A stretch of DNA of 64,000 nt. Source: a virus. Lineage: Duplodnaviria > Heunggongvirae > Uroviricota > Caudoviricetes. Positions 12,654-55,173 of this stretch are shown here, piece after piece (position 1 is the first letter of the stretch; every line of letters starts with the position of its first letter). The DNA lies in the IMG/VR virus record IMGVR_UViG_3300050821_008494; one strand, given 5' to 3'. The position numbers were made by a program, and so were the translations under genes. A model generated the notes under the pieces. The model worked only from the letters and a program-made list of their open reading frames with translations. It searched no databases and had not been told where the DNA came from.

Positions 12654-13865
12654 ATGTCTCAAGCAACTCACGGCCAGCTGCACTTCTCCGTCGAGGGAGC
12701 CCTCATCATGGACCTCGCTCGCGACGGCTACTGGTTTGAGGGCCGCAAGGAATGGGCACTCGACCTCCTATCATGCCTCGAAGGAATCACGACCGAGCAG
12801 AGCATGAAGATTCTACGGGGAGAGGCAATCCTCAAGGGCATCAGCTCAACCGACACTACAGTTGGCTACTACGACATGCCAGACAAGGAGTTCCAGAAGC
12901 GCCTCTCTGACTACGACAAGTGGATAGCAGAGCAGGTTGAGAAGAAGCGCAAGGAAGCGGAGGAGGAGATGAACTTCCACGAAGCACAATGGGACGAGAT
13001 ATCCAAGATGGGGCAGAGAGCAGACCTAATGCGGAAGGCAAGTCTGCTCCGAGACGAACTCATGGAGGGCCGGCCAGAGAAGCCCAAGGAGATTGTGCCT
13101 CCGAAGAATCCTGTCAAGCTCGGCAAGTTCGTCGTCGAGAAGGAACTCCTCGACAACTACCTCAAGGTCGCCTCAGACCACGACCTCATGGACCCATGGA
13201 GTGCAGGGACAGCTCTCCTCCTCTCCGGTCGCATGATGCGAATCCACTTGATGCTCCGCGAGTCCGTAGGTCTCCACGGCTTCTGGGGAAGGAGCGACAA
13301 GAGACCCGGAGAGCCGGACGCCTTCGACAAGGCCCTCCAAGCAGCCGTCCATTCAAACAACCGCAAGGACGACCGCTACATAGAACTCCAGAAGCGCCGG
13401 AGGCAAGGCTCAGGTTCAGAGTTCGCAGCAATGGAGTTGGCCGAGGCTTCTCTTCCTCAAGTGGAGAAATCTCCAACTACTCCAGATGAGGTCTACAAGC
13501 GGCTTCATCCGAAGGGCGAGGACGGCAAACTCATCAAGCCTCTAGTGACAGGCATACCAGCATCCAGAGGCAGAGCCTCGGGACCCGTCAAGCTAGTCCT
13601 CGACGAGAAGGACTTCGCCAGCGTCAAGAAGGGCGACGTCCTAGTCACGACAATGATAGTCCCCGACACCATCTTCGCAATCGACAAGATTGCAGCTCTC
13701 GTGACAGACGTCGGAGGGCTCACAAGCCATGCAGCCATAGTCAGCCGCGAGTTCCACGTCCCATGTATCGTCGGAGCCATCAAGGCTACCAAGTCACTCA
13801 AGGACGGCCAGAGAGTTACCGTCGATGGAACTACAGGCAAGGTCTTCCCGGAGGGTGATGTCTGA
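12654..13865 (+). CDS. Protein with C-terminal PEP-utilising enzyme mobile (phospho-His) domain
   Basis: GIPASRGRASGPVK...GDVLVT...ALVTDVGGLTSHAAIVSREFHVPCIVG with the catalytic His retained; the N-terminal ~290 aa is unrecognised. Confidence 0.85.
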   Translation: MSQATHGQLHFSVEGALIMDLARDGYWFEGRKEWALDLLSCLEGITTEQSMKILRGEAILKGISSTDTTVGYYDMPDKEFQKRLSDYDKWIAEQVEKKRKEAEEEMNFHEAQWDEISKMGQRADLMRKASLLRDELMEGRPEKPKEIVPPKNPVKLGKFVVEKELLDNYLKVASDHDLMDPWSAGTALLLSGRMMRIHLMLRESVGLHGFWGRSDKRPGEPDAFDKALQAAVHSNNRKDDRYIELQKRRRQGSGSEFAAMELAEASLPQVEKSPTTPDEVYKRLHPKGEDGKLIKPLVTGIPASRGRASGPVKLVLDEKDFASVKKGDVLVTTMIVPDTIFAIDKIAALVTDVGGLTSHAAIVSREFHVPCIVGAIKATKSLKDGQRVTVDGTTGKVFPEGDV

Positions 13866-22618: not shown

Positions 22619-22690
22619 GGCGTGTATGCAATCCAGCCAGCTACAGGTCAGCTTAACTTCCGGGAGCCCTAACACGGGGACTTGGTGCGT

Positions 22691-23089
22691 ATGACTTCAT
22701 TCGAAGAATACCAGAGCCTTGCTCACACTACAGCGAGGTATGACACAGATTGCAAGATGAAGGTCGGCGTAGTCCGGCCAAACAACGGACCCTCCGCAGG
22801 GATTCCAAAAGTGGACTTCAAGGACGTCCCGGTCTATCCATTCCTCAAGTCAACAGCAGAGGCAGCAGAGACCCTCGACAAAGTCGTCAAGGTCCGCTTC
22901 CGTGGAGACGCTCCGGGCTACCTGATGAAGGACGACTTGGTGAAAGAGATTGGGGACGACCTCTGGTATATCGCCGAGCGCTGCACAGTCCTCGGGGTCA
23001 GCATGGAGGAGGTCGCACGCATCAACCTTGAGAAGCTCGCATCACGGAACGCACGTGGCGTAATCCACGGCTCAGGAGACAACCGCTGA
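22691..23089 (+). CDS. mazG: MazG-like nucleotide pyrophosphohydrolase
   Basis: KEIGDDLWY...NLEKLASRNARGVIHGSGDNR, the viral MazG signature. Confidence 0.9.
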   Translation: MTSFEEYQSLAHTTARYDTDCKMKVGVVRPNNGPSAGIPKVDFKDVPVYPFLKSTAEAAETLDKVVKVRFRGDAPGYLMKDDLVKEIGDDLWYIAERCTVLGVSMEEVARINLEKLASRNARGVIHGSGDNR

Positions 23090-25108: not shown

Positions 25109-25716
25109 ATCGTCTCCTCCAAGCTCTCGCATTCGTAGACATAGAGACTTCCGGCCTCAAGGTGGAACGCCATGGAATCCTAAGTCTCGGAGCCGTCAGT
25201 CTCGCCAATCCATCCAAGACCTACTATGCAGAATGTCAGCTCGAAGTCCGGAAGAAGCTCAACCCAGAAGCCCTCGTGTTCAACGGCTTCACTGAAGAGG
25301 ACATCCGGAGTCCTACAAAGATTGGCGCGATAGACCTCATCAAAGGCTTCGAGGCATGGTCAACTGACTTAGGCATCTACGTCCTCGGAGGGCACAACAC
25401 ATGGTTCGACTCAGGATTCATAGAGGAAGCCTACGACCACTATGGAATCCATTGGCGCTTCGGACATCGCATCGTAGACCTCCACTCCGTCTTCTACGCC
25501 GACCTCATGAGGCGCAACGTCCAAGTTCCTCCTGTTGGCTTCGTCCTCGATGTAATCCTCCAGTCTGTTGGCCTTCCTATACGCAAGGGACCTCACAACG
25601 CCCTCGATGACGCCAAGCTCGAAGCCGAGGCCTTCTCCAGAATCGTTCACAAGGAGAGGGTCATCGAAGAGTTCAAGTCCTTCCCAATACCGGACGAAAT
25701 AGTTGTAGCTCCATGA
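25105..25716 (+). CDS. DEDDh (DnaQ-like) 3'-5' exonuclease
   Basis: VDIETSG, GHNTWFD, HNALDDA. Confidence 0.9.
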   Translation: MNRLLQALAFVDIETSGLKVERHGILSLGAVSLANPSKTYYAECQLEVRKKLNPEALVFNGFTEEDIRSPTKIGAIDLIKGFEAWSTDLGIYVLGGHNTWFDSGFIEEAYDHYGIHWRFGHRIVDLHSVFYADLMRRNVQVPPVGFVLDVILQSVGLPIRKGPHNALDDAKLEAEAFSRIVHKERVIEEFKSFPIPDEIVVAP

Positions 25717-26414
25717 GCAACGAATACGCCAACAGAATCCGTAGAGAGCAATACGAGCGCGGCTATGAAGGAGTCCAGATGCTCGCAAAGTTCCTAGAGT
25801 CTCACACGGGTGTTCTAACCGTGAGTGTCAACGAGGCGCAATACTCCCAAGGCAATATGTTCTTCCCGGACTTAGTCTTCCTCAACTATGGAGCCGAGGT
25901 CAAGCGAGCCGAGCTACTCACCAGTAACAGGTTCTCCAAAGGACAGCAGTTCAGAGGTTCCTTGGGCTCCATTCATATCAACAACTGCGGCTGGCACAAT
26001 CTCAAGGCCTACTGTCGGAAGACCTCGAAGGAGCTAGTGCTCATAACAGTCCTGACGTTCGGAAAGCAAGACCCTCTCTTCATCGGCATAGAGCCAGAGC
26101 AGGTCGATGTCTACATATCAGAGTTCGAGAAGCGCAACCCGGATGCCAAGCCGGTAGAGTATCAGGGCAAGCTCGTCTACAAAGAGCATCTTAGAAAGGG
26201 AGGAGCCTTCGTAGGCCATCACGAGCAGGGCAGCAGGGTCCCTGTGAACGTCTTCCGTCTTCTTCGCGACGGCAAAGTCCTAAACCACAACGACAACTTC
26301 AAGAGCTTCTTCCGGAGACTTCCTCCCGAGTATCTCCACGGCCTTCCTGCAACTTCCGAAATGTCATCTACGCTTAAAGGTGACAACTACGCCGGATGCG
26401 AAACTACCCGATGA
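25713..26414 (+). CDS. PD-(D/E)xK nuclease-like protein
   Basis: FPDLVF...AEVKR. Confidence 0.55.
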   Translation: MSNEYANRIRREQYERGYEGVQMLAKFLESHTGVLTVSVNEAQYSQGNMFFPDLVFLNYGAEVKRAELLTSNRFSKGQQFRGSLGSIHINNCGWHNLKAYCRKTSKELVLITVLTFGKQDPLFIGIEPEQVDVYISEFEKRNPDAKPVEYQGKLVYKEHLRKGGAFVGHHEQGSRVPVNVFRLLRDGKVLNHNDNFKSFFRRLPPEYLHGLPATSEMSSTLKGDNYAGCETTR

Positions 26415-27367
26415 GCGACAAGAAGCCTGAGAAGCAAGACACAGTAGTCCTCGGAGGAGGTCTTGTTGGTCAATACGCCGCATACAAGCTAGGAGCGAAG
26501 CTCATAACACTCAAGCCGGAGAAGACAATCCCCTACATCTTCCTCCACGACGCTCCTATGAACCGCAAGATGCTTGACGACTTAGGCGTCACATACGGAA
26601 CAGATGTCTGGAAAGTCGGCTTCATGTTCAAAGGTCAGCTCTACGAAGTCGCATCTCAGGACATGGTAAACGAGTATCACACCAAGTGCTACGGCCATCC
26701 TCCGAACAAGCCTCAGTTCAAGAAGCCATACTACGATATGCTTACACCGAACTACTACGAAGTCCGCAAGAAGCTCGAAGACCTCAACAAGACCGTTCTC
26801 TATGCTCGCATCTATCACATTGACCTCATAGGGCACATCGTAGGATACGAGCTTCCTGACAAGACTCTCGGCCTTATCAAATACAAGCACCTCATCAACA
26901 CTCTACCACTACCAGACCTTCTGCACATGGCGGGTGTGATAGAGTCCGAATCATACGAGTCTCGTCCAATCTTCTACTACAAGTTGCCGGAATGGCCGAA
27001 GGCCTACGAAGGCCTCGGTCTTGACACTGTCCATGTCATGGACTTGAAGGATGAGAGGACCCGCTTCGTGAAGGGCACAGCAGAGCCAAACACCTTCTTC
27101 CTTGAGACCCTTGAGAAGGATTCCAAGTATGGTGAGCTTTCCCAAGTTGTCAAGTATGGGAAGATATTCAACCGGGGCTGGCACCTTGAGATGCGCAACA
27201 ATGCGATAGAGAGGCTAGAGAAGCACGGCGTCCTTTCTGTAGGTCGCTTCGCCCGTTGGCAACAGCACTATGACACTCAAGACGCCCTTGTCCATCTTTC
27301 CGTCTTCTCATCTTCTATTAGGCCAACCAAATTCAGAACAGTGATGACGGAGATGCTTCATCTCTGA
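26411..27367 (+). CDS. FAD-dependent oxidoreductase-like protein (HemY / UDP-galactopyranose mutase-like fold)
   Basis: VVLGGGLVG dinucleotide motif, LINTLPL, C-terminal VGRFARW. Confidence 0.7.
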   Translation: MSDKKPEKQDTVVLGGGLVGQYAAYKLGAKLITLKPEKTIPYIFLHDAPMNRKMLDDLGVTYGTDVWKVGFMFKGQLYEVASQDMVNEYHTKCYGHPPNKPQFKKPYYDMLTPNYYEVRKKLEDLNKTVLYARIYHIDLIGHIVGYELPDKTLGLIKYKHLINTLPLPDLLHMAGVIESESYESRPIFYYKLPEWPKAYEGLGLDTVHVMDLKDERTRFVKGTAEPNTFFLETLEKDSKYGELSQVVKYGKIFNRGWHLEMRNNAIERLEKHGVLSVGRFARWQQHYDTQDALVHLSVFSSSIRPTKFRTVMTEMLHL

Positions 27368-28413
27368 GCGAGCTTCCGTGTCGCAACTGTGGGAACATAG
27401 AGACGACTCATCCATCTTCGGTTTGTGAGGTCTACGAGCCTATGAGGCAACTTGACCTCTCTATCATCAGAGACCATCTTGCCAAGTCGAAGGCCTTCTC
27501 AAGCCTCTTCTTCGACTTCGCGACGGAAGACCTTTCCCTCAAAGAGAAGGCGACGAAGGATTTGGCTTTGGGCGTCATCACAGAAGCTATGAGCGTCCTC
27601 GACGCCGTGAACTGGAAAGTTCACCACGGCGAGAAGTTTCCGGTTAGTCGCAGCAACCTTCTCGAACAGCTCATCGACGTCTACAAGTATCTCATGAGCA
27701 TAGCCTCCCTCTGGAACTTCACTCCGCAAGAATGGCAGGAGGAGTTCGAGCGGAAGGACTTAGTCAACTGGCAGCGATACAGGCAGGACACAACTATCAA
27801 GACCCTGACTGCGGCGTCAAAAGTAGCGGCAATCGACATTGACGGAGTCCTTTGTGCCTACCCAGAGAACATCATAGCCTTCATGAACAGGCGCTTCGCG
27901 AAGGTAGTTACCCTGAAGGACATCAAATCCCTTCACGGGGTCGAGGACGCATACCTAGAGCAAGGCGTCAAGGCGTCAGACTATCGACTGGCTCGCCTCG
28001 ACTTCTTGGAGGAGGGTTGGTATTCGAAGTATTCACCTGTGATGAATGGAGCCTCAGAGTTCACACACAAGCTCAAAGACCTCGGCTACACCATAGTCCT
28101 TCTAAGCTCTCGTCCCTACGAGAAGCACCACAGGATATTCGGCGACACCGTCGAGTGGTGTCAGGCCAACAAGATTGCCTTCGACATCATCTACTGGGAC
28201 AAGGACAAGGACATGAGAATCATCAAGACCTTCCCCAACCTCCGGTTCCTTCTCGACGACGACGTTGACAACGTCCGCGAAGTCGCGAAGGCCGGTTATC
28301 TTTCGATACTTTTCGAGAGACCATACAACCGTCGCTCTCTGACTACAAACTTCTTGATAGCTTCAACCTACGACGAAGTCATAGGCCATCTGACAGAGCC
28401 ACAAGTGGCTTGA
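27364..28413 (+). CDS. All-alpha dimeric dUTPase-like domain fused to a HAD 5'(3')-deoxyribonucleotidase; probable CTG-start Zn-finger extension (ATG alternative 27442)
   Basis: EAMSVLDAVNWK...EQLIDVYKY...KDLVNWQR; HAD motifs DIDGVL, SSRP, DDD. The 26 codons upstream of the ATG are open (CRNCGNIETTHPSSVC). Confidence 0.8.
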   Translation: MSELPCRNCGNIETTHPSSVCEVYEPMRQLDLSIIRDHLAKSKAFSSLFFDFATEDLSLKEKATKDLALGVITEAMSVLDAVNWKVHHGEKFPVSRSNLLEQLIDVYKYLMSIASLWNFTPQEWQEEFERKDLVNWQRYRQDTTIKTLTAASKVAAIDIDGVLCAYPENIIAFMNRRFAKVVTLKDIKSLHGVEDAYLEQGVKASDYRLARLDFLEEGWYSKYSPVMNGASEFTHKLKDLGYTIVLLSSRPYEKHHRIFGDTVEWCQANKIAFDIIYWDKDKDMRIIKTFPNLRFLLDDDVDNVREVAKAGYLSILFERPYNRRSLTTNFLIASTYDEVIGHLTEPQVA

Positions 28414-28434
28414 ACAGAACCTCAGATATGTTAC

Positions 28435-28449
28435 GGCTTAAGATAAGCC
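28435..28449 (+). promoter_or_regulatory. Operator copy GGCTTA-AGA-TAAGCC
   Basis: Perfect 6-bp inverted repeat with the shared core; AT-rich GATATGTTA just upstream. Confidence 0.65.
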
Positions 28450-28454
28450 CAACT

Positions 28455-28616
28455 ATGGAGTCCATAGGAGTTCTAGACAGCCTACAGTGGCCGAACAAAT
28501 CTGCTCCCCAATTCAGGACGAGCGCCACGCTCGGACTGCGAGCGGTTTCAGTAGGCTTCGGCTCTACTCGCGCAAGCGTCCTGAGCCTAAGTGCGTGCAA
28601 GTCGCCCAGACTCCAC
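28455..28616 (+). ncRNA. Candidate structured ncRNA or 5' leader (~160 nt)
   Basis: TGGAGTC/GACTCCA end pairing, TCAGGACG/CGTCCTGA 8-bp stem, AGCG-CCA-CGCT hairpin, C(UUCG)G tetraloop arm; sits between an operator and the SD of the next gene. Confidence 0.5.
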
Positions 28617-28632
28617 TTCTGGTGATTATGCC

Positions 28633-28890
28633 TTGAACTCTTCCGACACCGTTCTCTACAACTGGTTCATAGCAGAAGGAGAAGGCATCTCTTCGATTAG
28701 CCCCGGTCTCGGAATCCATCTCGTCAATCTCCTCGGCCAAGTCCGCGAAGTCATCCCGAAGGTAACAGACCCATACGTCAAGAAGCAACTTGAGACCTAC
28801 AGGGACTCTCTTGAGTTCATAACGAGCTTTGCTGCCATTCATCAACGTGCTGTCATCGACAAGCTCTCATACCTCGTGGAGAAGGCATGA
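28633..28890 (+). CDS. Hypothetical protein
   Basis: TTG with GGTGA SD 7 nt upstream. Confidence 0.6.
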   Translation: MNSSDTVLYNWFIAEGEGISSISPGLGIHLVNLLGQVREVIPKVTDPYVKKQLETYRDSLEFITSFAAIHQRAVIDKLSYLVEKA

Positions 28891-29528
28891 CCCGCTCCAA
28901 AGACACTCAGCGCCTAGTTGCGGCAATCGAAGCCATAAGCCGGAAGAAGTCCCTCTCCAGCAACGAGTTCGCTTACAACCTCTTCTTCGCCCTGCGCCGA
29001 GTAATTGAGGGCAGAGAGTCTTACATCAGGGAATACGGCACACGAGAGTTCAAAGAATATCCTCCCGGCACATTTCTCTCCGAGTATGATGCGAAGATAA
29101 AAAGCAACCTCCTCGACGCCAAAACGTGGCTCTCTCGCAAATGTGGAGACCGTCAGGGCTACCATGCCCCAGACGATTGGCAAGTAGGTGCAGCCCTTCT
29201 AAGTCTACAAAACGGAGAGATTGCCGATATTCTTGAGAACACTTTGAAGCACGGCGTTGCTCTTCCCAAGGAGTCATCAGACCGTCTCAAGAAATACGGA
29301 CGCAAGCGTGGTTGGTATCTCCAAAGGTCATACAACGACTTGCCAGATGTTACATCTCACCCCGACCCTACCATGGACGACACATGGCACTACTTCTACG
29401 GAGGGCAGAGTCTCTGCGGCAAATACACCGGCATGAAATGGAATTGTGTCGGCGACATACCCGACAACACAAAGTTCTCAGTTTGTGAAGTCTGCCTCGG
29501 GAAGGCACCAGCAAAGGTCGTGCGATGA
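28887..29528 (+). CDS. Hypothetical protein with C-terminal WHYF...SLCG...CEVC Zn-binding module
   Basis: ATGA coupling; H/C motif. Confidence 0.65.
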   Translation: MTRSKDTQRLVAAIEAISRKKSLSSNEFAYNLFFALRRVIEGRESYIREYGTREFKEYPPGTFLSEYDAKIKSNLLDAKTWLSRKCGDRQGYHAPDDWQVGAALLSLQNGEIADILENTLKHGVALPKESSDRLKKYGRKRGWYLQRSYNDLPDVTSHPDPTMDDTWHYFYGGQSLCGKYTGMKWNCVGDIPDNTKFSVCEVCLGKAPAKVVR

Positions 29529-29588
29529 TGGGCAAGGTCTCGATAATGGAACTTCGGACCCCTACCTTCCCGGAGAAGAAACCCTAGC

Positions 29589-29693
29589 ATGGCACTCATA
29601 CCTCCATCGCCTCCGGGCTGCCGCAAGTGCGGTCACAAGCCACACCCCGGAGTGTTCTGCCCTGAGAGAGAATGCGAATGCGTAGGCTTCTAA
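29589..29693 (+). CDS. Cys/His microprotein (34 aa, CRKCGHKPHPGVFC...CEC)
   Basis: Manually translated; same pattern as 63257-63409. Confidence 0.55.
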   Translation: MALIPPSPPGCRKCGHKPHPGVFCPERECECVGF

Positions 29694-29730
29694 TCCGGCT
29701 ATATGCTCGGACCCAAGGAGGGCTTCGAGT

Positions 29731-30351
29731 TTGATACTCCAACTCCTCGTCGGACTTAGCCTCGTTCTCGCAGGCTACCAAGATGTCAAGGAGCGCAAGG
29801 TCAGGGACTTCTTCTGGCTACCCGGAGCTGTCGGTCTAGCAATCGCAATCCTCATCCTCCGCTCTCCATCTCTAGTCTTTGCCGTCGTCCTAGTCGGCAT
29901 CATAGCATTCTTCGTCGCCAAGGCAGGTATGTTCGGTCAAGCAGACGGCATAGCGTTCCTCTTCATCATAGCAGACCCTGCCCCATACGCTCCGGCACCA
30001 GCTCTAATCGTTCTGGCCTTCGTAGTCGTGGCGCACTCAGTATTCCTCTACAGAAAGGGCTTCATCAGGAAGCTCACCATAAGCCTCGACCGCTTCAACT
30101 CAGAAGCCCAGTGGATTCCACGGAGTCTAATCGTGAACGGAGTCAAGACCATGAACCTCATGAACGTCAACAACTCCCGCGAGCGAATCGAGAAGGCGAG
30201 CAAGGCAAGGGAGAACGACGAAGTCAAGCAGGACGTTCAAGTTGAGGTAGTCTACGGCGTGCCAACAGTAGCCTACATTGCCGTGGCTTACGTTGGCTAC
30301 GTCGTCTTCCTCGCTTTTGCCGCACCGCACTTTCTCTTCTCAGTCCCGTGA
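29731..30351 (+). CDS. Archaeal type IV prepilin/preflagellin peptidase (A24, FlaK/PibD-like)
   Basis: Both catalytic Asp contexts: GYQDVKERKVRD and GQADG; multiple TMs; C-terminal VYGVPTVAYIAV. Confidence 0.8.
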   Translation: MILQLLVGLSLVLAGYQDVKERKVRDFFWLPGAVGLAIAILILRSPSLVFAVVLVGIIAFFVAKAGMFGQADGIAFLFIIADPAPYAPAPALIVLAFVVVAHSVFLYRKGFIRKLTISLDRFNSEAQWIPRSLIVNGVKTMNLMNVNNSRERIEKASKARENDEVKQDVQVEVVYGVPTVAYIAVAYVGYVVFLAFAAPHFLFSVP

Positions 30352-30378
30352 TTGTTATGGCATCAGAAGCAGAACTCC

Positions 30379-30402
30379 TTTTAACGTCTCCCATAAGATA
30401 AG
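30379..30402 (+). promoter_or_regulatory. TTTTAA box plus operator CATA-AGA-TAAG (30392-30402)
   Basis: Operator at -21..-11 of TTG 30413. Confidence 0.55.
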
Positions 30403-30412
30403 GCCTATCAAA

Positions 30413-30628
30413 TTGACTCCCGAGAAAGAACCGCCAATCGACCTCTCCAAGCTAACCCAAGGTCAGCTTTGGGCGAGCCTACGGAAGTGCTGGAAGGCCT
30501 ACCGCATCGCCAAGGTTCAGGCCGACAAAGAAGTCATGAAGAAATACGCCTTGCGAATCGTAGCGATTCAGGACGCCCTGAAGGTCCCGCATTCCATCTT
30601 CGAAGTCTTGCAGTTGGATGCGTCCTAG
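30413..30628 (+). CDS. Hypothetical helical protein
   Basis: TTG start downstream of the operator, within track ORF 30278. Confidence 0.55.
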   Translation: MTPEKEPPIDLSKLTQGQLWASLRKCWKAYRIAKVQADKEVMKKYALRIVAIQDALKVPHSIFEVLQLDAS

Positions 30629-30629
30629 A

Positions 30630-30929
30630 ATGGCCGACCAAGAACTCCGCGACAAACAGTTTGCGAACGTCCTCAAAGTCCTACAGGCAACGTTCCATCA
30701 GAAGAACCTAGACCATGCCGACTCCTACTTGGAGAATCCGAAGACCGAGCAAGAAGCCTTCTTTCCAATCAGGCACAAGTATGAGCGCATCGTAGCGATA
30801 CTCAAGATTCCTGAGAGCCAGAGGACCGACGGTCAGAAGATGACTATGCTTGAAGACCTTCGGGACCTCTGCGTCTACTCTGTGATGTTTGACATCTGGC
30901 AACTTCAAGGAAGTCGTGGAGTCGAGTAG
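30630..30929 (+). CDS. DUF1599 / nucleotide-modification-associated domain 1-like (all-alpha NTP-PPase superfamily)
   Basis: KNLDHADS...IRHKYERI...LEDLRDLCVYSVM. Confidence 0.7.
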   Translation: MADQELRDKQFANVLKVLQATFHQKNLDHADSYLENPKTEQEAFFPIRHKYERIVAILKIPESQRTDGQKMTMLEDLRDLCVYSVMFDIWQLQGSRGVE

Positions 30930-30931
30930 AC

Positions 30932-31723
30932 CTGCCAGTATCGAACGACCAGATTAGGCATGACGCTTCCGAATGGTATCGCCCCAATCTTCACGTTGGC
31001 GAGGCTCCCTTCAACTCATTCTCCTTCCTCTCCGACGAACTAGCGATACTCATCAGCCCGAAGGAAGAGCGCTACGAGGAAATCATCAACACAATGTATC
31101 AAGTCCAACTAGCAACTTGGACAGACAAGGTGATACTGGATGTAACCTTCGAGGAGAAGGAGGCCAAGGTCAAGCAGGCTCTCACGAGGCGTGTCGGGAC
31201 TCCCCTTCTGGAAAGTCTCTGCCTCACATTCGCCCTCCAGAACGTTCCTCGGAGCCTGACACACCAAATCGTCCGTGCTCGCAAACTCGGCTTCGGTCAG
31301 CAGGCGATGAGGGTCAACGATGTTCGGCATCAGCCTGTCCGTCTACCAACCACGATAGAAGGAAGCGAGTTCGAAGAGCCCTACAAGGAACTCGTTGGAG
31401 CAATCAAGAGGTTCTACGCTCGCATGATAGACCACGGCATCCCCGTCGAGGACGCTCGCAACATCATGCCAATGGGAACCATGACCTACATCACAGTGAC
31501 TGGTCAACTCCGGTTCTGGCTCGAACTCTGGCAAGGTCGAGCACAGAAGGCCGCTCAGAATGAGTATCGTGTTCTAGTTCACAAGATGCTCGACGAGTTC
31601 AGTGTCAGGATGCCAAGACTCTTCTCTCTCCTTGTAACTTCCAACTCCATACCTACAAAGGTCTGGCTCGATGACCTTTCACAGGCCGACCGAGTCCGCA
31701 TGGGACTCGGGACACCGGAGTAG
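30932..31723 (+). CDS. thyX: Divergent flavin-dependent thymidylate synthase (ThyX-like); probable CTG start (ATG alternative 31094)
   Basis: LESLCLTFALQNVPRSLTHQIVRAR...QQAMR, GIPVEDARNIMP, RAQKAAQNEYR. Frame is open 54 codons upstream of the ATG. Confidence 0.8.
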   Translation: MPVSNDQIRHDASEWYRPNLHVGEAPFNSFSFLSDELAILISPKEERYEEIINTMYQVQLATWTDKVILDVTFEEKEAKVKQALTRRVGTPLLESLCLTFALQNVPRSLTHQIVRARKLGFGQQAMRVNDVRHQPVRLPTTIEGSEFEEPYKELVGAIKRFYARMIDHGIPVEDARNIMPMGTMTYITVTGQLRFWLELWQGRAQKAAQNEYRVLVHKMLDEFSVRMPRLFSLLVTSNSIPTKVWLDDLSQADRVRMGLGTPE

Positions 31724-31729
31724 AGTCAC

Positions 31730-31876
31730 TTGAGGAAAACCGGTAACAACACTTGGGTTACCAACAAGCAATATCGCAAGCAGAAGAAGGGAAGTGGAAG
31801 AGGGAATCATAACCACTGGCAGTTCGGCGAATGCAGACCCGGATGTCCTCGATACATAGGTCCAGAAAAGAGCTGA
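31730..31876 (+). CDS. Basic microprotein (48 aa)
   Basis: Manually translated MRKTGNNTWVTNKQYRK... Confidence 0.45.
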   Translation: MRKTGNNTWVTNKQYRKQKKGSGRGNHNHWQFGECRPGCPRYIGPEKS

Positions 31877-32109
31877 CTCTATTGATAGAAGAGTTCACTC
31901 AGGAACAGAAGGACGCAATCGTTATGATGATAGGCACCAAAGGCCTAGACAGTATCGTTGCCATGGCAAATCTAATGCCACCTGACCACAGGCTGAGGAA
32001 TCCCTACCTTCTCGCCTGTCATCTTATCCTGAATAACATAGAGAGAGTTGAATCAATAATTCGAGAGGGTCTTCAAAGCGGCTTTTCTGCCGAGGGCTTG
32101 GATTCATGA
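31831..32109 (+). CDS. Hypothetical protein (start possibly CTG 31873)
   Basis: Track ORF; CTGA overlap possible. Confidence 0.5.
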   Translation: MQTRMSSIHRSRKELTLLIEEFTQEQKDAIVMMIGTKGLDSIVAMANLMPPDHRLRNPYLLACHLILNNIERVESIIREGLQSGFSAEGLDS

Positions 32110-32549
32110 CAATAGAAAACGAAGACATCACATCAGTTCTCATGCTCTGGGCAGAAGTTCAAGAGGGCTCCCCTTCTCCGAGCTTCTGGCCTCACTGGCG
32201 CAGCCTTCGCAGGATGCTCTCTGGCGAACTCAGCAGGCACGACTATGTCCAGAACATAATCAACACGCAGACAGACAGGCTCAAGGAGACAGGCGAAGAG
32301 ATTCGTAAATTCGAAGCCAACCTCGACATCAAGTTGAAGGAATTGCGTTCCGCACAGGCTGCCAAGGCCTCGTGGAAAGGAGGCGACCCGTATGATGTCA
32401 ATTACGAGGTCGAGAAATCCGAGAGGGATGTTCGCAGTATTGAGCAGTCTATCAAGTCAAAGCACGAGCGGTTTCAAGAGCTGACTTCCTATGTCGAATA
32501 CCTCGGCAAGATTCTATCGAAGGTAACTCCTACCAACGCCGTGACTTAG
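32106..32549 (+). CDS. Coiled-coil protein
   Basis: Long E/K-rich heptads. Confidence 0.65.
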   Translation: MTIENEDITSVLMLWAEVQEGSPSPSFWPHWRSLRRMLSGELSRHDYVQNIINTQTDRLKETGEEIRKFEANLDIKLKELRSAQAAKASWKGGDPYDVNYEVEKSERDVRSIEQSIKSKHERFQELTSYVEYLGKILSKVTPTNAVT

Positions 32550-32551
32550 AC

Positions 32552-33175
32552 ATGGCACGCCAGCGTTATGTTCAACAGATACTCCCTTCGACAGTCCAAG
32601 AGAAGCGCGGCTACAAAAGCGAGACACAGCAGAAGAACCTCATGTGGCTTCTCCCTCGCCCGAAGAGAGACCACTACAAAGGAGGTATGCCGCTCTACGC
32701 CGAAGAATGGCTCCTCCAGCTCGCCAATGAAATCTTCGGCATCAACTACGACTGGGGCAAGAAGACCCTTCTCCAAGTCTTCGCCGGGATGAACAAGTAT
32801 GGGCTCCGTGTTGACCTGAACAAAGAAGTCAAACCGGACTACGTCGGCGACATCCACAGGCTCTCTAAGATTCTACCCAAGAAGATGCTCAAGAAGTTCC
32901 CAGTCATCGTAGCCGACCCCGCATACTCCGACGATGAGAATGAGAAGCTCTACGGTCTAAAGATGCATCTCAGCTACAAGCTCTGGTCTTCGGAATGCAT
33001 CAAGTTCCTCCGACCCGGAGGCCTCTTCATAGTCTACCACAAGAACCTGATGCGCAACCCTGACCCAGAGAGGTTCACCGTCGTGAAGCGCGTAGCAATC
33101 GCAAACCGTGTCGGCCACGTTGGGAGGTTTGCCGTCTTCTTTCAAATGAAGGGAGGCAGGAGGCAGCTCAATTGA
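32552..33175 (+). CDS. Putative N6-adenine/N4-cytosine DNA methyltransferase
   Basis: LQVFAG (motif I), VDLN...PDYVGD, VIVADPAY (motif IV variant), LRPGG. Confidence 0.7.
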   Translation: MARQRYVQQILPSTVQEKRGYKSETQQKNLMWLLPRPKRDHYKGGMPLYAEEWLLQLANEIFGINYDWGKKTLLQVFAGMNKYGLRVDLNKEVKPDYVGDIHRLSKILPKKMLKKFPVIVADPAYSDDENEKLYGLKMHLSYKLWSSECIKFLRPGGLFIVYHKNLMRNPDPERFTVVKRVAIANRVGHVGRFAVFFQMKGGRRQLN

Positions 33176-33378
33176 ATCTTAAAGTCCGGACAGTCACAAT
33201 CTACCGCGATGACAGCACAACCCAAGTCGTCTACGAGAACGTCAAGCACATATTCTGGACAGCAGGTAACACCGTTCTAGTTCTCGCAATCTACAAGCAC
33301 GCCGAAGAAGACGACTCTCATTTCTACGTCCATTGGCTCCGGGAGCGCATCTGCTGGTTCAAGGACGTGCCACAATGA
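33172..33378 (+). CDS. Hypothetical protein
   Basis: TTGA-coupled. Confidence 0.55.
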   Translation: MNLKVRTVTIYRDDSTTQVVYENVKHIFWTAGNTVLVLAIYKHAEEDDSHFYVHWLRERICWFKDVPQ

Positions 33379-33731
33379 TTACCGTCGAAGCTCTCCTCGC
33401 TTGGCGCAAGAAGCACATCTGGGACTTCCTCGACAACATGGCAAAGGAGAAGGGCTCCGACTACTCCGGAGAAGGCGAGGTTGACACTTTCAGGAATCTT
33501 CGCCTAGTCGAATACACCATGGAGATTCCAACAGAGGTCGGAATCCAAATCCGTCTTCACGACAAGTTCATGCGCACCAACATCCTCCTCAAGCGCGAGT
33601 GGGAATCAGGCAGAGGGCCTTCCGTCAAAGACGAGTCTCTCTCAGTTACAATCCTAGACCACATCAACTACCTCACCTACATCCAAGCTCTCCGAGCCGA
33701 ACGGTTCAACAAAGGGGTCCTCCCAGAATGA
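33375..33731 (+). CDS. Second DUF1599-like all-alpha NTP-PPase
   Basis: EKGSDYSG...FRNL...IRLHDKFMR...VKDESL..TILDHINY. Confidence 0.7.
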   Translation: MITVEALLAWRKKHIWDFLDNMAKEKGSDYSGEGEVDTFRNLRLVEYTMEIPTEVGIQIRLHDKFMRTNILLKREWESGRGPSVKDESLSVTILDHINYLTYIQALRAERFNKGVLPE

Positions 33732-34811: not shown

Positions 34812-37562
34812 TTGCCTTACCTGTGCCTCGATACAAACTGTAACACCATGTTCGGTGACGCCTCCGGTTATCGTTCTGGCAAGCCTCATTGCCCCAAGTG
34901 TGGAGGCGACAAGGTCCTCGCTCCCGGTCGAAAGTCCATACGTTCCATAGACCCTTCTCTGATGCCATACCGGACCTACGACAAACCCCTCGACCCACGG
35001 ACCCTCCCCGTGTTCTACAAGCTCTCGACCTTCACCGACGAAGACACCCAAACTGATTGGATGGCAATTCACAAGCCGAAGGACAACGGCGATGGCAACG
35101 AGATACTCTTCGCACGTCCTCCCTTCAAGCCCTACTACTTCATCGACGAGCTAGGCTACAGCCAGAACCAGAGTTCAATTGACGGACTCCTCCAGCAATT
35201 CCACGGCTCCATAGACCGGAAGTTCAAAGGCTTCCAAGCCGGAGGAGACCATCGCCCTGTCATCAAGGTAGAGTTCCGCAGCGACCCGGAGCGCAAACGT
35301 TCATCCTACCAGATTGACAAATTCGTCCGCTGCTATCAATCCAACACACCTCACACGGCAAGTATCCTTCGTGACTTAGACATCCAAATCAAAGGCTACC
35401 CAACACGTATGGTCTGGGACTCGGAGGTTGACCCGCGCAACGTTCCAAACCTCCAGCGCAACGACGGTCGCATCATACTCATCTGCGGAGTCGGATACAA
35501 GGTCGGGAGCGGCACAAGTAGGCTTGCAGGCCTCAACGACAATCTGATGACAGGATACATCAACCCTAGCGGAGATGTAGTCCCGCATCCTGTCGAAGGT
35601 GGGGTCAGGCAATACGTCTTCCGTCTGACAGAAGACACAGACGTCTCAGTAGCACGCGATGTCCTTCGACCATTCCTCAAGGAAGCCTTCAACTACAGCG
35701 CACTGATGGGATTCTATTCCGCGAAGTTCGACGTCCCATACACTCAGATTTGGATAGCCCGTCTCAAGCTTGGGTTTGACTTCGACTTCATTACAGTATT
35801 CGACTTCCATAACATCTACACTGTCCTCAACACTAACAACTGGGACGACCGCAAGTTCAACCTCGACTCTATCGCAACGCGAGAATTCGGAGAGGGAGAG
35901 GGCAAAGAGAAAATCAAGGACTACCAAGTCCTCTGGGACTGGTGGGTCTCCAAGGACCCCCGTCTTGTCTCCTACTGTCTCCAAGATGCTGACCTAGTCC
36001 GCAGGCTCGATGAGAAGTGGAGTGGCATTGACAGTCGCCTTGTCGCAACGAACCTCACAAACGTCCGTCCTGACGCTTACATCTCGTATATGCCGGGCAT
36101 AGAGTCAATCACAGTCAAGAAGCTCAACAAGCGTAATCCTTCCGAAGTTCTCTACACTCCTTCTGGCAAGCGCCAGTCCAGCACATACGAGGGTGCAATG
36201 GTCTTCGACCCCGTCAAAGGAGTCCACGACAACGTAGTGTTCCTAGACGCAAAGGCCATGTATCCCCACATCATCAGAACATTCAACATAGGACTCGACA
36301 CCCTCGACCCGAACGGAGAAATCCATACACCCAAGGCCAACTTCAAGAACAAGCCCGACAGCGTCTCCAAGGAAGTGCTTGACGAGCTAGAAAAGTGGCG
36401 CGAGTTCTACAAGGCAGAGCGCGACAAATACGAAGTCGATTCCGAGAAGTGGTCAGAGTTCGAGAAGAAGCAGTGGGTCGTCAAATACTACATGGTGTCA
36501 TACTACGGAGTCCTCGGCTCAACTTGGTCGTTCATGTATGAGCCCTCCGTCGCAGAGGCCATAACTCTCCTCGGTCAGCAAATCCTCGGATGCGCTCGTC
36601 ACATCCTCCAATACATGGGCTACCCGGTCCTCTACGGAGACACGGACTCCCTCTGTCTGAAACTAACAGACGAGGAAATCTTCGGCTACCGACCGACAGA
36701 GGCACAATACAAGAAGTTCAAAGCACGCACCTGCCCGAAGGACACCTGCCGGACTCCTCTGGATTGGAATTGGAAGGGCGACCCCGTAACAGGAGGACCC
36801 GAGGGCTACTGTCCCAACTGCAAGAAAGTCATGATGACAGTCAAGCTCTTGAAGACTCTCTGCCTAAGTCGCGTCCTTGCTGACGTCGTCGAGCGAGCTG
36901 TGAACTACTTCGCGGAGACTCGCTTCCATGTTCTAGCTCCGCAGATGGAGTTCGAGGTTGACAAGGTCTACCAATGGGTCTACTTTACGAAGGTCAAGAA
37001 GCGCTACGCAGGGCCTATGCTCTGGAAGGGAGTCCCTCTTCCGGAGCCAAAGCTCAAGATTACCGGCTTCGAGTCCAAGAGAACAGATTGGCCTAAGTTC
37101 ATCCAGAGTATCCAACTGAGATGCTTCGACCTTCTCGGCTCCCATGCTCCAGAGAAGACGGTCCTCGACTACGTCGAGAGCGAACTTGACTCCCTCTACA
37201 GAGGAGAACGAGACCAAGACATCATACAGAAGAAGGTCATCCGTCGCAAGGTCGAAGACTATGGCAAGAAGATGGTAGACGGTATAGTCGTCTCAAACCG
37301 TGGCGCAATCCCTCCATACGTCCGGGCTGCCAAGATTATGCGGGACGAGCGCCACATGGACATCAGGGTAGCCCAGCAAATCCTCTACTACATGAGCATG
37401 GACAAGCAGGTCATCCCGGTCTACGAAGACGAGCCTCTTCCCAAGCTCTCAAAGGACTTCTATGACTATACACGCAAGCAGGTTTATGCTGTCCTAGAAC
37501 GAATGGAGCTTCCTGTTGGAGTAATTGGCAACCACAGTCCAGAGGAGGTCTTCGCATCTTGA
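34812..37562 (+). CDS. polB: Family B DNA polymerase with N-terminal and palm-inserted Zn ribbons
   Basis: Exo II AKFD, Exo III YCLQD, motif A DAKAMYP, motif B K..MVSYYG, motif C YGDTDS, KKRY, GFESKRTD. Confidence 0.95.
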   Translation: MPYLCLDTNCNTMFGDASGYRSGKPHCPKCGGDKVLAPGRKSIRSIDPSLMPYRTYDKPLDPRTLPVFYKLSTFTDEDTQTDWMAIHKPKDNGDGNEILFARPPFKPYYFIDELGYSQNQSSIDGLLQQFHGSIDRKFKGFQAGGDHRPVIKVEFRSDPERKRSSYQIDKFVRCYQSNTPHTASILRDLDIQIKGYPTRMVWDSEVDPRNVPNLQRNDGRIILICGVGYKVGSGTSRLAGLNDNLMTGYINPSGDVVPHPVEGGVRQYVFRLTEDTDVSVARDVLRPFLKEAFNYSALMGFYSAKFDVPYTQIWIARLKLGFDFDFITVFDFHNIYTVLNTNNWDDRKFNLDSIATREFGEGEGKEKIKDYQVLWDWWVSKDPRLVSYCLQDADLVRRLDEKWSGIDSRLVATNLTNVRPDAYISYMPGIESITVKKLNKRNPSEVLYTPSGKRQSSTYEGAMVFDPVKGVHDNVVFLDAKAMYPHIIRTFNIGLDTLDPNGEIHTPKANFKNKPDSVSKEVLDELEKWREFYKAERDKYEVDSEKWSEFEKKQWVVKYYMVSYYGVLGSTWSFMYEPSVAEAITLLGQQILGCARHILQYMGYPVLYGDTDSLCLKLTDEEIFGYRPTEAQYKKFKARTCPKDTCRTPLDWNWKGDPVTGGPEGYCPNCKKVMMTVKLLKTLCLSRVLADVVERAVNYFAETRFHVLAPQMEFEVDKVYQWVYFTKVKKRYAGPMLWKGVPLPEPKLKITGFESKRTDWPKFIQSIQLRCFDLLGSHAPEKTVLDYVESELDSLYRGERDQDIIQKKVIRRKVEDYGKKMVDGIVVSNRGAIPPYVRAAKIMRDERHMDIRVAQQILYYMSMDKQVIPVYEDEPLPKLSKDFYDYTRKQVYAVLERMELPVGVIGNHSPEEVFAS

Positions 37563-53341: not shown

Positions 53342-53854
53342 TTGAACAAGTTGCAGGTCAAACCCGGTCCAAGAGTGAGTGTCTCTCTGTATTCACAAGA
53401 GCTTCAGAGTCTCCGAAAGAGGCTTCACGAACTTATAGCAGGAAGGAAATTCTTCATCATCCTAGTCACAGGAGACCGCAATTGGCCTTGGTCGGCTCGC
53501 TTCATCATAGGTAAGGCTCTCCAAGATGTCACCAGAACTCTCGCACCGGACGTCTTCATAGTTCTCATAGAAGGAGGAGCCAAGGGAGCCGACTACTGCG
53601 CCAAGACCTACGCCGAGAAATGCGGTTGGGGAGTCCTCGAAGTCGAGGCTCATTGGGACCTCTACGGCAATCGGGCAGGCCCCGTCCGTAACAGGCAGAT
53701 GTTCGAACTAGGGCAGAATGTCATCCTAGCCTTCCACGACGATTTGTCCAAGTCACGCGGGACGAAGAGCATGGTAGGAATCTGCACCGAATCTGGAAGT
53801 CAGGTAACGCTCTACGGCACAGATGGAAAGGCCTCTACTCTCGGAAGCGAGTGA
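53342..53854 (+). CDS. SLOG-family (DUF2493/YspA-like) protein
   Basis: ILVTGDRNW, IEGGAKGAD, W..YG..AGPVRNRQM, AFH...GTKSM. Confidence 0.85.
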   Translation: MNKLQVKPGPRVSVSLYSQELQSLRKRLHELIAGRKFFIILVTGDRNWPWSARFIIGKALQDVTRTLAPDVFIVLIEGGAKGADYCAKTYAEKCGWGVLEVEAHWDLYGNRAGPVRNRQMFELGQNVILAFHDDLSKSRGTKSMVGICTESGSQVTLYGTDGKASTLGSE

Positions 53855-53858
53855 TAGC

Positions 53859-54149
53859 ATGGCAGACTGCTCAATACCCGGTTGCGACGGTGGAGCAATC
53901 ACAATGGAGTATCTCTGCCCCAAACACAAGCAGGGCATAACGGGTCACGAGCTATACCTTCTCGCAATGGAGAATGCGAAGCGCTGGAACCACGGGACCC
54001 TTCCGTCGGCCCACATCTGCTATGGCTTTCTCTTCAGCGCCCTCCACTACCCAGACGAAGAGTTCAAGTTCAAAGTCCCTCCGATAACCCTAGTGGACTA
54101 CAGCGGAATGATTCGCGACGGCGAACTCATTGAGGAGAAGAAGGCATGA
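53859..54149 (+). CDS. Hypothetical Cys-containing protein
   Basis: CSIPGC...LCPKH. Confidence 0.55.
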   Translation: MADCSIPGCDGGAITMEYLCPKHKQGITGHELYLLAMENAKRWNHGTLPSAHICYGFLFSALHYPDEEFKFKVPPITLVDYSGMIRDGELIEEKKA

Positions 54150-54400
54150 TAACTCCAGAGCGCATACTGTCTAGATACTACCCTAGCATCGACGTCGTCT
54201 GCGAAGGCAACGAGAAAGAGAAGTGCGAGAGGAAGACCCCAATCCACTACGGTAAACCATTCAGAACCGGTGCTAGCATGGCAACTAACGAACTGATGTG
54301 GGAATCCCTAGCAGAGCATATGCGTCAGAGTAGCCACACCAAGTTCTCCTTCGAACTGAAGGATGACCCCGACTGGAAACCAAAGGAGATACTACCATGA
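54146..54400 (+). CDS. Hypothetical protein (C..C..H..H)
   Basis: ATGA-coupled. Confidence 0.55.
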   Translation: MITPERILSRYYPSIDVVCEGNEKEKCERKTPIHYGKPFRTGASMATNELMWESLAEHMRQSSHTKFSFELKDDPDWKPKEILP

Positions 54401-54663
54401 GACGCATAACCAAAATCCTCGCTCTCCTAATCGTAGCTTCAATCCTCCCGGACTTCCTTCTTCTTCTAGGCCTGTATCTCTACTACAACATACTCAATCC
54501 TTCTCTACTCTCCTACCCTGCCCCTCACTGGCTCCTGTCTCTTCTTCTCTGGCTTCCTGCCTCGTTGATAGTATCGGTATTCTCTAGCATAGCTCTCACG
54601 ACTCTAGCTTTCTTTCCCAACTTTGACATCAGGAGGAAGAGCCCTGTTGCCTCAAACCAATAG
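54397..54663 (+). CDS. Two-TM membrane protein
   Basis: Leu-rich hydrophobic helices. Confidence 0.65.
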   Translation: MRRITKILALLIVASILPDFLLLLGLYLYYNILNPSLLSYPAPHWLLSLLLWLPASLIVSVFSSIALTTLAFFPNFDIRRKSPVASNQ

Positions 54664-54683
54664 CCTTAAGATAAGCCCTGTTG
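54664..54683 (+). promoter_or_regulatory. Operator copy CCTTA-AGA-TAAGCCCTGTTG
   Basis: Core at -35..-25 of ATG 54700; identical to 51693-51712. Confidence 0.6.
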
Positions 54684-54699
54684 AACCCTGCGCGAGGGT

Positions 54700-55173
54700 A
54701 TGAAATTGGAAGACATTGAAGCGAAAGCTAAGGAATACGCTAGGGTCGCCCATGCAGGCAAAGTCTACGGCGACAATCAGAATTACTTCGAAGCTCATCT
54801 CACGAAGGTCGCCGACATCGTCGCCTCCGTTACAGATGACCCGGAGGTCATAGCAATGGCGTGGCTTCACGACATCCTAGAAGACACATCATTCAGAGAC
54901 CTCTACGGACTCTTCGGTCTCAGAATCTCTGATGGAGTAATCTGCCTCACTCGCTACAAGGAATACAAAAGTCGCGAGAAAAACGAGGAGGTCTACATCA
55001 AGAAGCTCTCTGTTGCTCCTCCCGAAGTGAAGCTCGTCAAGCTCGCCGACATCATCGTCAACATTAGCAACCTCTCGACAAAGAAGGGTGACAAGAAATT
55101 CTACCTCCGCGAGAAGCTCACAGAGCTTCAGTCCATTGGACTTGAATCCATCTACGAGGTCATAACATCTTGA
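54700..55173 (+). CDS. HD-domain phosphohydrolase (SpoT/MESH1-like)
   Basis: AHAG..Y...Y..H..KVA, AWLHDILEDT, VKLADIIVN. Confidence 0.85.
   Translation: MKLEDIEAKAKEYARVAHAGKVYGDNQNYFEAHLTKVADIVASVTDDPEVIAMAWLHDILEDTSFRDLYGLFGLRISDGVICLTRYKEYKSREKNEEVYIKKLSVAPPEVKLVKLADIIVNISNLSTKKGDKKFYLREKLTELQSIGLESIYEVITS

Follow-up and report, generated by a model that had tools for sequence, protein, structure and literature searches.

Which pyrimidine nucleotide might be made by the cluster of nucleotide genes that adjoins the replicative polymerase gene, on its upstream side, in the archaeal virus-like element IMGVR_UViG_3300050821_008494? The full element is 185 kb, and our analysis covers a stretch of 64 kb of it, hereafter the window. 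For positions 26411-33731, the original prediction had proposed an undescribed pathway of nucleotide remodelling or base modification, composed of an FAD oxidoreductase, a dUTPase-like/HAD fusion, two DUF1599-like proteins, an atypical ThyX, and a methyltransferase (MTase), with MazG upstream and a family B DNA polymerase (PolB) with altered motifs downstream. Every gene on this list was present on the plus strand. Our preferred but tentative reading is that the region is the archaeal-virus version of a conserved viral cassette, which makes thymidylate (dTMP) by a variant route that uses two flavoproteins. Judged from its sequences, the cassette appears to comprise a flavoprotein resembling UDP-galactopyranose mutase (UGM), an all-alpha helper resembling nucleoside triphosphate (NTP) pyrophosphatases (dUTPase_2 and/or DUF1599-like), a ThyX without the His53-Tyr91 pair, and a deoxynucleoside monophosphate (dNMP) phosphatase. 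It most likely acts as one unit on the pool of deoxyuridine tri- and monophosphate (dUTP/dUMP) for the adjacent viral polymerase; we infer the substrate, the division of labor, and the product.

The core genes of the cassette in the window are the following (lengths in amino acids, aa).

26396-27367 (alternative start 26411), plus strand: small UGM-like flavoprotein, 323 aa (by motifs, profile, and fold)
27442-28413, plus strand: two-domain protein, 323 aa, with a dUTPase_2-like all-alpha domain (~residues 1-125) and an NT5C-type HAD 5'(3')-deoxyribonucleotidase (by profile, PDB, and Atlas)
30618-30929, plus strand: DUF1599-like small helical protein no. 1, the ThyX-adjacent helper (phrog_1485, E = 0.002)
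30932-31723, plus strand: non-canonical ThyX, 263 aa, with a CTG start (PF02511); the ATG open reading frame (ORF) at 31094-31723 is a truncation

A ThyX with an altered active site

The atypical ThyX was borne out, with its start moved to ~30932. The protein matched PF02511 (E = 5.1e-28, 98.6 bits against a cut-off of 24.8) and ThyX chains in the PDB (E = 5e-7). Its frame is open from 30893, and no in-frame ATG, GTG, or TTG occurs between 30893 and 31094. The CTG at 30932 is a start codon in translation table 11 and lies 2 nt past the TAG of the gene for DUF1599-like protein no. 1, and translation from this codon yields a protein whose alignment with four close ThyX relatives (38-41% identity) begins at residue 3. 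A programmed -1 frameshift joining 30618-30929 to ThyX, an idea taken from the relative P0031, in which the two form one fused ORF, was rejected. From the sequence, we prefer initiation at the CTG over such a frameshift: no slippery heptamer was found in the 37-nt overlap window, the CTG coincides exactly with the initial Met of relatives in which ThyX stands alone, and it is preceded by a GGAG at a distance of 11-14 nt. Translation of ThyX is probably coupled to the upstream DUF1599-like gene.

ThyX proteins were surveyed by a profile search of 1.8 billion representatives, followed by tabulation of alignment columns and a tree, with residue roles taken from Thermotoga maritima. Canonical ThyX carries His53, RHR, Ser88, Arg90, and Tyr91. 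Its signature, RHR-x7-S followed by R-Y, is not kept in the window, where the sequence reads RAR-x7-A-M-R-V. The dUMP-binding residues R78, R80, R90, R147, R174, and Q75 are kept, both in the window ThyX and across its own clade. In canonical enzymes, His53 stacks on the folate pterin and the reduced flavin, Tyr91 hydrogen-bonds His53, and Ser88 hydrogen-bonds the flavin; mutation of Tyr91 slows flavin oxidation during methylation ~1000-fold (PMC11940539). The window ThyX would thus have kept its nucleotide site and changed its handling of folate and flavin, because the arginines are intact and His53, Tyr91, and Ser88 are replaced.

The superclade to which this protein belongs contains the window clade (~45 clusters at 50% identity) together with a 'QQC[ST]GD' clade and a 'GGRD' clade. 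Residue 53 is not His in nearly all of the 73 superclade leaves, compared with His in 73 canonical representatives. The QQC[ST]GD-type ThyX-like genes, found in five phage contigs (L004, L006, L011, L012, and L013), read R[TNMS]RIGATYSQQC[ST]GD, where Cys takes the place of Ser88 and Gly that of Arg90. The GGRD-type gene (L020:11500-12756), like the QQC[ST]GD type, directly follows a UGM-like flavoprotein gene. Canonical ThyX (PF02511, TIGR02170; T. maritima TM0449 and Mycobacterium tuberculosis ThyX) has in common with the window copy the Thy1 domain, the nucleotide-binding residues, and a deoxynucleotide or replication context, whereas the window copy starts with CTG and lies in a separate superclade, one tied to an additional flavoprotein and to a small helical protein as partner.

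A flavoprotein related to UDP-galactopyranose mutase

The gene at 26396-27367 bears out the predicted FAD oxidoreductase: the protein has a dinucleotide-binding GGGLVG motif and a GRFARW motif, it resembles flavoprotein folds, and it matches UGMs. It had no match in Pfam, phmmer with the single sequence found nothing in the PDB, and tblastn with three different family members found nothing among isolated phages. Its ESM Atlas model resembled amine-oxidase/PPOX-type folds (TM 0.76-0.81), and the nearest clusters were viral. When a profile of ten family sequences was compared with the PDB, UGMs were the sole matches (E = 5e-5), and the alignment included the C-terminal GRF(A/G)xW. An AlphaFold2 model built from a ten-sequence alignment had a pLDDT of 80.6 (a three-sequence alignment gave a pLDDT of 46 and was unusable), and the top 20 Foldseek matches of this model were all UGMs (E = 2e-11; TM 0.55-0.60 by query and 0.38-0.50 by target). 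Judged by sequence profile and predicted fold, the closest solved family is therefore UGM.

UGM (Glf; PDB 3ute, 4dsg, 3hdq, 1i8t) and the viral flavoprotein have in common the N-terminal GxGxxG and the C-terminal GRF(A/G)xW. However, the viral flavoprotein is ~300 aa long, compared with 360-510 aa for UGMs; most of the helical UDP-binding domain appears to be missing, with few helices in the model, and several UGM substrate residues seem not to be conserved. In the GRF.xW segment, Gln and Thr stand at what we take, by our own mapping from the profile alignment, to be the positions of AfUGM Tyr453 and Asn457. The contexts also differ, being polysaccharide synthesis for UGM and nucleotide metabolism for the viral flavoprotein. 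In both UGM and ThyX, the N5 of the reduced flavin is the covalent catalyst, which makes a functional tie between the flavoprotein and ThyX plausible, though undefined.

The dUTPase_2-like/HAD protein and the DUF1599-like proteins

The predicted dUTPase-like/HAD fusion was also confirmed. The C-terminal half of the 27442-28413 protein matched NT5C (PF06941, E = 7.6e-9) and, in the PDB, deoxyribonucleotidases (E = 0.0095), with the DxDGV motif aligned to that of human cytosolic deoxyribonucleotidase. The HAD catalytic motifs are intact, and SSRP and DDD are also seen in the sequence. The N-terminal domain matched dUTPase_2 at E = 0.009, which is under the curated cut-off, and in the Atlas it resembled dUTPase_2 clusters with TM 0.72-0.80; a viral cluster of dUTPase_2-NT5C fusions also matched the protein. 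This domain is 37% identical to the dUTPase_2 domain of a phage fusion (L004; E = 7e-20), and a protein of equal architecture in L020 is 27% identical to the whole protein over 251 aa (E = 7e-23).

Outside the core, the region holds a second small helical protein and a methyltransferase.

32552-33175, plus strand: SAM-dependent methyltransferase-like protein (phrog_3816 'DNA methyltransferase', E = 3.7e-11)
33375-33731, plus strand: DUF1599 (Nmad1)-like small helical protein no. 2 (phrog_1485, E = 2.8e-6)

The two DUF1599-like proteins of the original prediction fared differently. For no. 2, the assignment has fair support from the Atlas: the feature score was 0.94 for a cluster with PF07659 in 27% of its members, and the structure matched a cluster named 'Nucleotide modification associated domain 1' (TM 0.69/0.76); tblastn of this protein against phages found nothing. 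For no. 1, the assignment is weak and would be indirect, through phrog_1485 and through homology to the gene or domain that precedes ThyX in relatives. No. 1 is 34% identical to the gene preceding ThyX in L014 (E = 1.8e-16) and is collinear with P0031, a DUF1599-ThyX fusion, over the N-terminal domain of the latter (pairwise E = 0.015), a domain that itself matches PF07659 (E = 1.3e-3). With a family hidden Markov model (HMM) of no. 1, the gene was found adjoining ThyX in L001, L003, L014, L016, and L017. Neither small window protein matched PF07659 (Pfam DUF1599) even at E = 10. No similarity was detectable between no. 1 and no. 2, hhalign included, or by hhalign between the DUF1599-like family and the dUTPase_2 domain family, and therefore we do not claim homology for either pair.

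The predicted MTase was recovered through its phrog_3816 match. When it was compared with isolated phages by tblastn, the best match was ORF46 of a Nitrosopumilaceae spindle-shaped virus (E = 6e-6), and the DNA methyltransferase of Haloarcula virus HHTV-1 was also matched (E = 8e-4). The protein is probably a DNA amino-methyltransferase and, by sequence, looks like an ordinary archaeal-virus DNA methyltransferase. No MTase homologue was found in the related cassette loci; the MTase, DUF1599-like protein no. 2, and the small ORFs between do not belong to the conserved set.

Conservation and fusions of the cassette

In at least ten further contigs, from bacterial as well as archaeal viruses, the core genes again lie side by side or are fused, a minimal figure given that homologue searches and IMG/VR pattern scans yielded few relatives. 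This recurrence indicates that the grouping is beyond chance. Among eight loci retrieved first via ThyX, the flavoprotein lay within 4 kb in five and was not found there in L001, L003, and L005; the sample of relatives is small and partly biased by the route of locus retrieval.

Three kinds of fusion were found: flavoprotein-dUTPase_2, DUF1599-ThyX, and dUTPase_2-HAD. The five phage contigs with QQC[ST]GD-type ThyX encode a fusion of 389-443 aa, in which the flavoprotein carries a C-terminal dUTPase_2 and both halves are homologous to the two adjacent window genes. The ThyX gene directly follows this fusion, and kinase-like genes and PolA come next. In L020, the order is flavoprotein, dUTPase_2-HAD fusion, and GGRD-type ThyX. 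Three archaeal-virus-like contigs fall in the ThyX clade of the window: L014 and L017 have the flavoprotein, a DUF1599-like gene, and ThyX, with an HD 5'-nucleotidase upstream, and L016 has the flavoprotein followed by a DUF1599-ThyX fusion. A related contig of 3.6 kb has the order flavoprotein, MazG, and NT5C fusion. Genes resembling dNK or thymidylate kinase follow ThyX in L004, L013, and L014.

Further genes were observed around some of these loci. Radical SAM genes (one with SPASM) and UDG-family genes adjoin the cassette at L013:4332-5986, L016:3323-4000, and L017:4256-5146, and between ThyX and PolB, L001 encodes an HD 5'-nucleotidase and a protein resembling nucleoside 2-deoxyribosyltransferases.

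We found no published description of a link between the flavoprotein and ThyX. The archaeal-virus instance, the three kinds of fusion, and the gene model with a CTG start are new here, and so, as far as the loci indicate, is the linkage of all three non-canonical ThyX subgroups to the flavoprotein.

Thymidylate or a modified pyrimidine

The proposed route to dTMP includes one gene upstream of the cluster.

22682-23089, plus strand: MazG-type nucleoside triphosphate pyrophosphohydrolase, 135 aa (PF03819, E = 5.4e-5, 23.8 bits against a cut-off of 22)

This match confirmed the predicted upstream MazG, which lies 3.3 kb before the predicted start of the cluster at 26411 and whose tie to the cassette is loose. 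MazG and the dUTPase-like domain would convert dUTP to dUMP, and the altered ThyX would bind dUMP and methylate it at C5, giving dTMP. The partner flavoprotein, perhaps together with the DUF1599-like subunit, would supply flavin reduction or flavin handling to ThyX, and the HAD nucleotidase would remove surplus or unwanted dNMPs. A reliance of ThyX on the partner flavoprotein is proposed because the residues that stack folate/NADPH and gate the flavin are lost.

A dTMP product fits the intact dUMP-binding residues, the thymidylate-kinase-like genes after ThyX in relatives, the intact HAD motifs, the avoidance of restriction sites, and a precedent in wyrdviruses. In these spindle-type viruses of Asgard archaea, a block of dUTPase, ThyX, and NMAD1 (DUF1599) was interpreted as making dTMP (Medvedeva et al., bioRxiv 10.1101/2021.07.29.453957). 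By description, the block of this archaeal spindle-type virus group resembles the window in combining a dUTPase-type enzyme, ThyX, and a DUF1599-like protein; unlike the window cassette, it comes with no mention of a flavoprotein or a nucleotidase in that paper.

Other observations weigh against thymidylate synthesis. Canonical ThyX needs no second flavoprotein. The window ThyX carries the substitutions H53S, H79A, S88A, and Y91V (T. maritima numbering), its score against the NCBIfam equivalog TIGR02170 is 77.4 bits (cut-off, 87.9), and the tree places it in a non-canonical superclade (support 0.97, 73 leaves sampled) in which His53 and Tyr91 are replaced. Two of the four acidic metal ligands of the dUTPase_2-like domain are replaced, the window having E..S and Q..D where the phage fusions have E..E and E..D. 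If the cassette simply supplied dTMP, a dNMP phosphatase in it would work against that end. A remote counterpart of the cassette occurs in Pseudomonas phage PB1, where ORF65 matches the flavoprotein HMM (E = 3.7e-8) and ThyX has F53, RTR, and A91. The lost catalytic residues, the constant extra flavoprotein, the dNMP phosphatases, the degenerate dUTPase-like metal site, and the Pbunavirus case all favor a non-canonical product.

That the cassette makes a non-canonical pyrimidine nucleotide, as the original prediction had it, is possible, though we hold it somewhat doubtful. Candidate products would be 5-hydroxymethyl-dUMP, if the exocyclic-methylene intermediate of ThyX were trapped and not reduced, or a larger C5 adduct. 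The pyrophosphatase and the nucleotidase would clear the competing canonical nucleotide, and the deviant PolB would incorporate the product. The loss of the His53-Tyr91 pair, here with His79 and Ser88 too, while the nucleotide-binding arginines are kept, speaks for this possibility, as do the ThyX score under the equivalog cut-off and the tight coupling of ThyX to an extra UGM-like flavoprotein. Moreover, the dNTP pyrophosphatase, the dNMP phosphatase (NT5C or HD), and the dNMP-kinase-like gene that recur in relatives follow the logic of SPO1/T4-type base replacement, and L013, L016, and L017, with radical SAM and UDG-family genes next to their cassettes, point the same way. Conversely, L001 and L003, which belong to the ThyX clade of the window, have no flavoprotein near ThyX.

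Known pathways agree in part. SPO1/SP8 (5-hydroxymethyluracil, hmU), T4 (5-hydroxymethylcytosine, hmC), and thymidine hypermodification follow a like logic, with a dNTP pyrophosphatase, a dNMP phosphatase, a thymidylate-synthase-like enzyme, and a dNMP kinase (here in relatives only) beside the polymerase. However, known base-replacement and hypermodification pathways use ThyA-family hydroxymethylases, 5-hmdU DNA kinase, and aGPT-Pplase (Lee et al., NAR 2021, PMC8989533), none of which was detected here. The PaMx11 pathway also has a flavoenzyme, which is MnmC1/DAO-like, whereas the window flavoprotein is UGM-like (PMC8989533). When ~60 window ORFs were scanned against Pfam, no dNMP kinase, ThyA-family dNMP hydroxymethylase, 5-hmdU DNA kinase, aGPT-Pplase, or glycosyltransferase was found, which counts against a non-canonical product and agrees with the caveat, made at the outset, that no dNMP kinase or hypermodifying transferase was seen. 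BLAST with the kinase-like genes of the relatives gave P-loop-level matches only.

The polymerase downstream has the altered motifs that had been predicted, and their deviation from canonical motifs A and B favors a non-canonical product.

34812-37562, plus strand: family B DNA polymerase with deviant motifs A and B (PF00136, E = 1.4e-25; PDB PolB/Pol II, E = 3.6e-25)

Motif A reads DAKAMYPH and motif B reads K...VSYYG, with Val for the conserved Asn, and YGDTDS is kept. The PolB of the related virus contig L001 has the canonical DLTSLYPS and K...NSVYG.

The restriction-site record of the window is extreme and counts against a non-canonical product. As had been noted before, GATC and GTAC are avoided: neither occurs in the 64 kb, compared with ~197 and ~175 expected, respectively. 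The window also has no copy of 27 of the 64 hexamer palindromes, among them CTCGAG (47 expected), GAGCTC (42), and GTCGAC (27). This avoidance suggests that the DNA is still exposed to ordinary restriction, and the absence of both tetramers together with the missing hexamers argues against a blanket protective modification. For hexamer palindromes with TG/CA, avoidance is weaker than for the rest (median observed/expected 0.58 vs 0.14; Mann-Whitney p = 0.02, post hoc), which would favor a modified pyrimidine; because this comparison was made only after reading the Pbunavirus paper, we treat it as a lead and not as evidence.

The Pbunaviruses F8 and 14-1 provide a precedent, as they carry a hypermodified, sugar-type thymidine in a TG context, with derivatives of 362 and 390 Da and no known biosynthetic genes (PMC12191111). 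The group includes PB1, with its remote version of the cassette. PB1 ORF65 has the motifs GAGLAGL and GRFATW, akin to those of the window flavoprotein, and stands in a Pbunavirus replication module with the ThyX gene ORF59, ORF57, an exonuclease, and the polymerase; further members of the module are a MazG-like gene and a possibly phosphatase-like ORF, whose annotation is polynucleotide kinase/phosphorylase. However, the sequence relationship of PB1 to the window is very distant, its ThyX belongs to another subgroup, and the Pbunavirus link consists of a weak HMM match and a correlation, so that the PB1-type module is unproven as the source of the modified thymidine.

On balance, the claim of an undescribed nucleotide or base-modification pathway stood in part. 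The conserved cassette, its altered ThyX, and the lack of a published flavoprotein-ThyX link speak for it; the intact dUMP-binding residues, the lack of known modification enzymes, the extreme palindrome avoidance, and an ordinary-looking MTase that is not found in related cassettes speak against it.

A more specific idea, which we consider unlikely, is that the cassette is a new route to C5-substituted deoxyuridylates by flavin-N5 iminium chemistry. The ThyX without His53 and Tyr91 would, together with the UGM-like flavoprotein, attach an unreduced one-carbon unit (hmU) or a sugar-derived chain to C5 of dUMP. Flavin-N5 adducts occur in both families, as flavin-sugar in UGM and flavin-methylene in ThyX. 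By our own mass arithmetic, such a route would fit the two Pbunavirus thymidine derivatives as deoxyuridine plus deoxypentitol-yl and deoxyuridine plus hexosyl. If it were true, this would be the first archaeal virus-like element with such a pathway.

We regard as improbable that the genes form a device to destroy or take over the nucleotide pool, in which the pyrophosphatases and the HAD nucleotidase would drain dUTP or other dNTPs to nucleosides, and the degenerate ThyX and dUTPase-like domains would serve only as nucleotide-binding or regulatory parts. An architecture leading from dNTP through dNMP to nucleoside in one chain would suit this role, as would the dUTPase-like domain without two metal ligands, the four missing canonical ThyX residues, and the HD- or NT5C-type nucleotidases that recur in relatives. 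However, the ThyX clade keeps all nucleotide-binding arginines over its ~45 clusters, a sign that the active site is under purifying selection; in relatives, ThyX is followed by kinase-like genes, and a location directly upstream of the polymerase fits precursor supply. It is likewise improbable that the region is no functional unit at all, with independent housekeeping nucleotide genes (MazG, dUTPase, ThyX, and methyltransferase) and an unrelated oxidoreductase brought together by chance in the replication region, since three kinds of gene fusion and strict adjacency in the other contigs stand against it, even though the flavoprotein/HAD pair lies 2.5 kb from ThyX in the window, with unrelated genes between, and the MTase and DUF1599-like protein no. 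2 are not conserved in related loci.

Genomic neighborhood

All window genes lie on the plus strand, and the GC content is ~52%. The cassette region is part of a replication block. Upstream, the block contains an AAA_24 protein, MazG, and an RNase T-like exonuclease; downstream, it contains PolB, an RNase H, an ERCC4 nuclease, an RFC-like clamp loader, and a DUF3987 protein. No phage sequence was matched by the region in a megablast search. The gene directly upstream of the flavoprotein encodes a conserved protein.

25713-26414, plus strand: conserved protein without a family match, 233 aa

This protein had no match in Pfam, PHROG, or NCBIfam, and its homologue in L007 (61% identity) has the equivalent position upstream of a flavoprotein homologue. 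It has a PD...EVK stretch reminiscent of PD-(D/E)XK nucleases, and the RNase T-like exonuclease gene precedes it.

The prediction that the genes form one cluster held for the conserved core, but unrelated genes interrupt it in the window. One of them encodes a prepilin-peptidase-like membrane protein (29731-30351; weak PF01478 match, E = 1.4e-4). Elsewhere in the window, a 403-aa protein (12654-13865) has a C-terminal PEP-utilising-enzyme mobile domain (E = 1.9e-24), which is unusual for a virus-like element. A SLOG-family (YAcAr) protein and an HD_4 domain protein are encoded close together at 53342-55173; they lie outside the cluster and may be nucleotide-related.

Implications for ThyX and DUF1599

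ThyX is viewed both as a drug target and as an enzyme that needs no partner, and DUF1599 is a domain without known function. A large viral ThyX superclade that lacks the folate- and flavin-gating residues and is tied to a UGM-like flavoprotein and DUF1599 points to unstudied chemistry at pyrimidine C5. The fusions name the proteins to be co-expressed, making the question directly testable. If the product is dTMP, a two-flavoprotein thymidylate synthase would be defined and DUF1599 would be given a role. If it is a modified base, the cassette would provide the missing genes for thymidine hypermodification in Pbunaviruses and would extend such chemistry to archaeal viruses.

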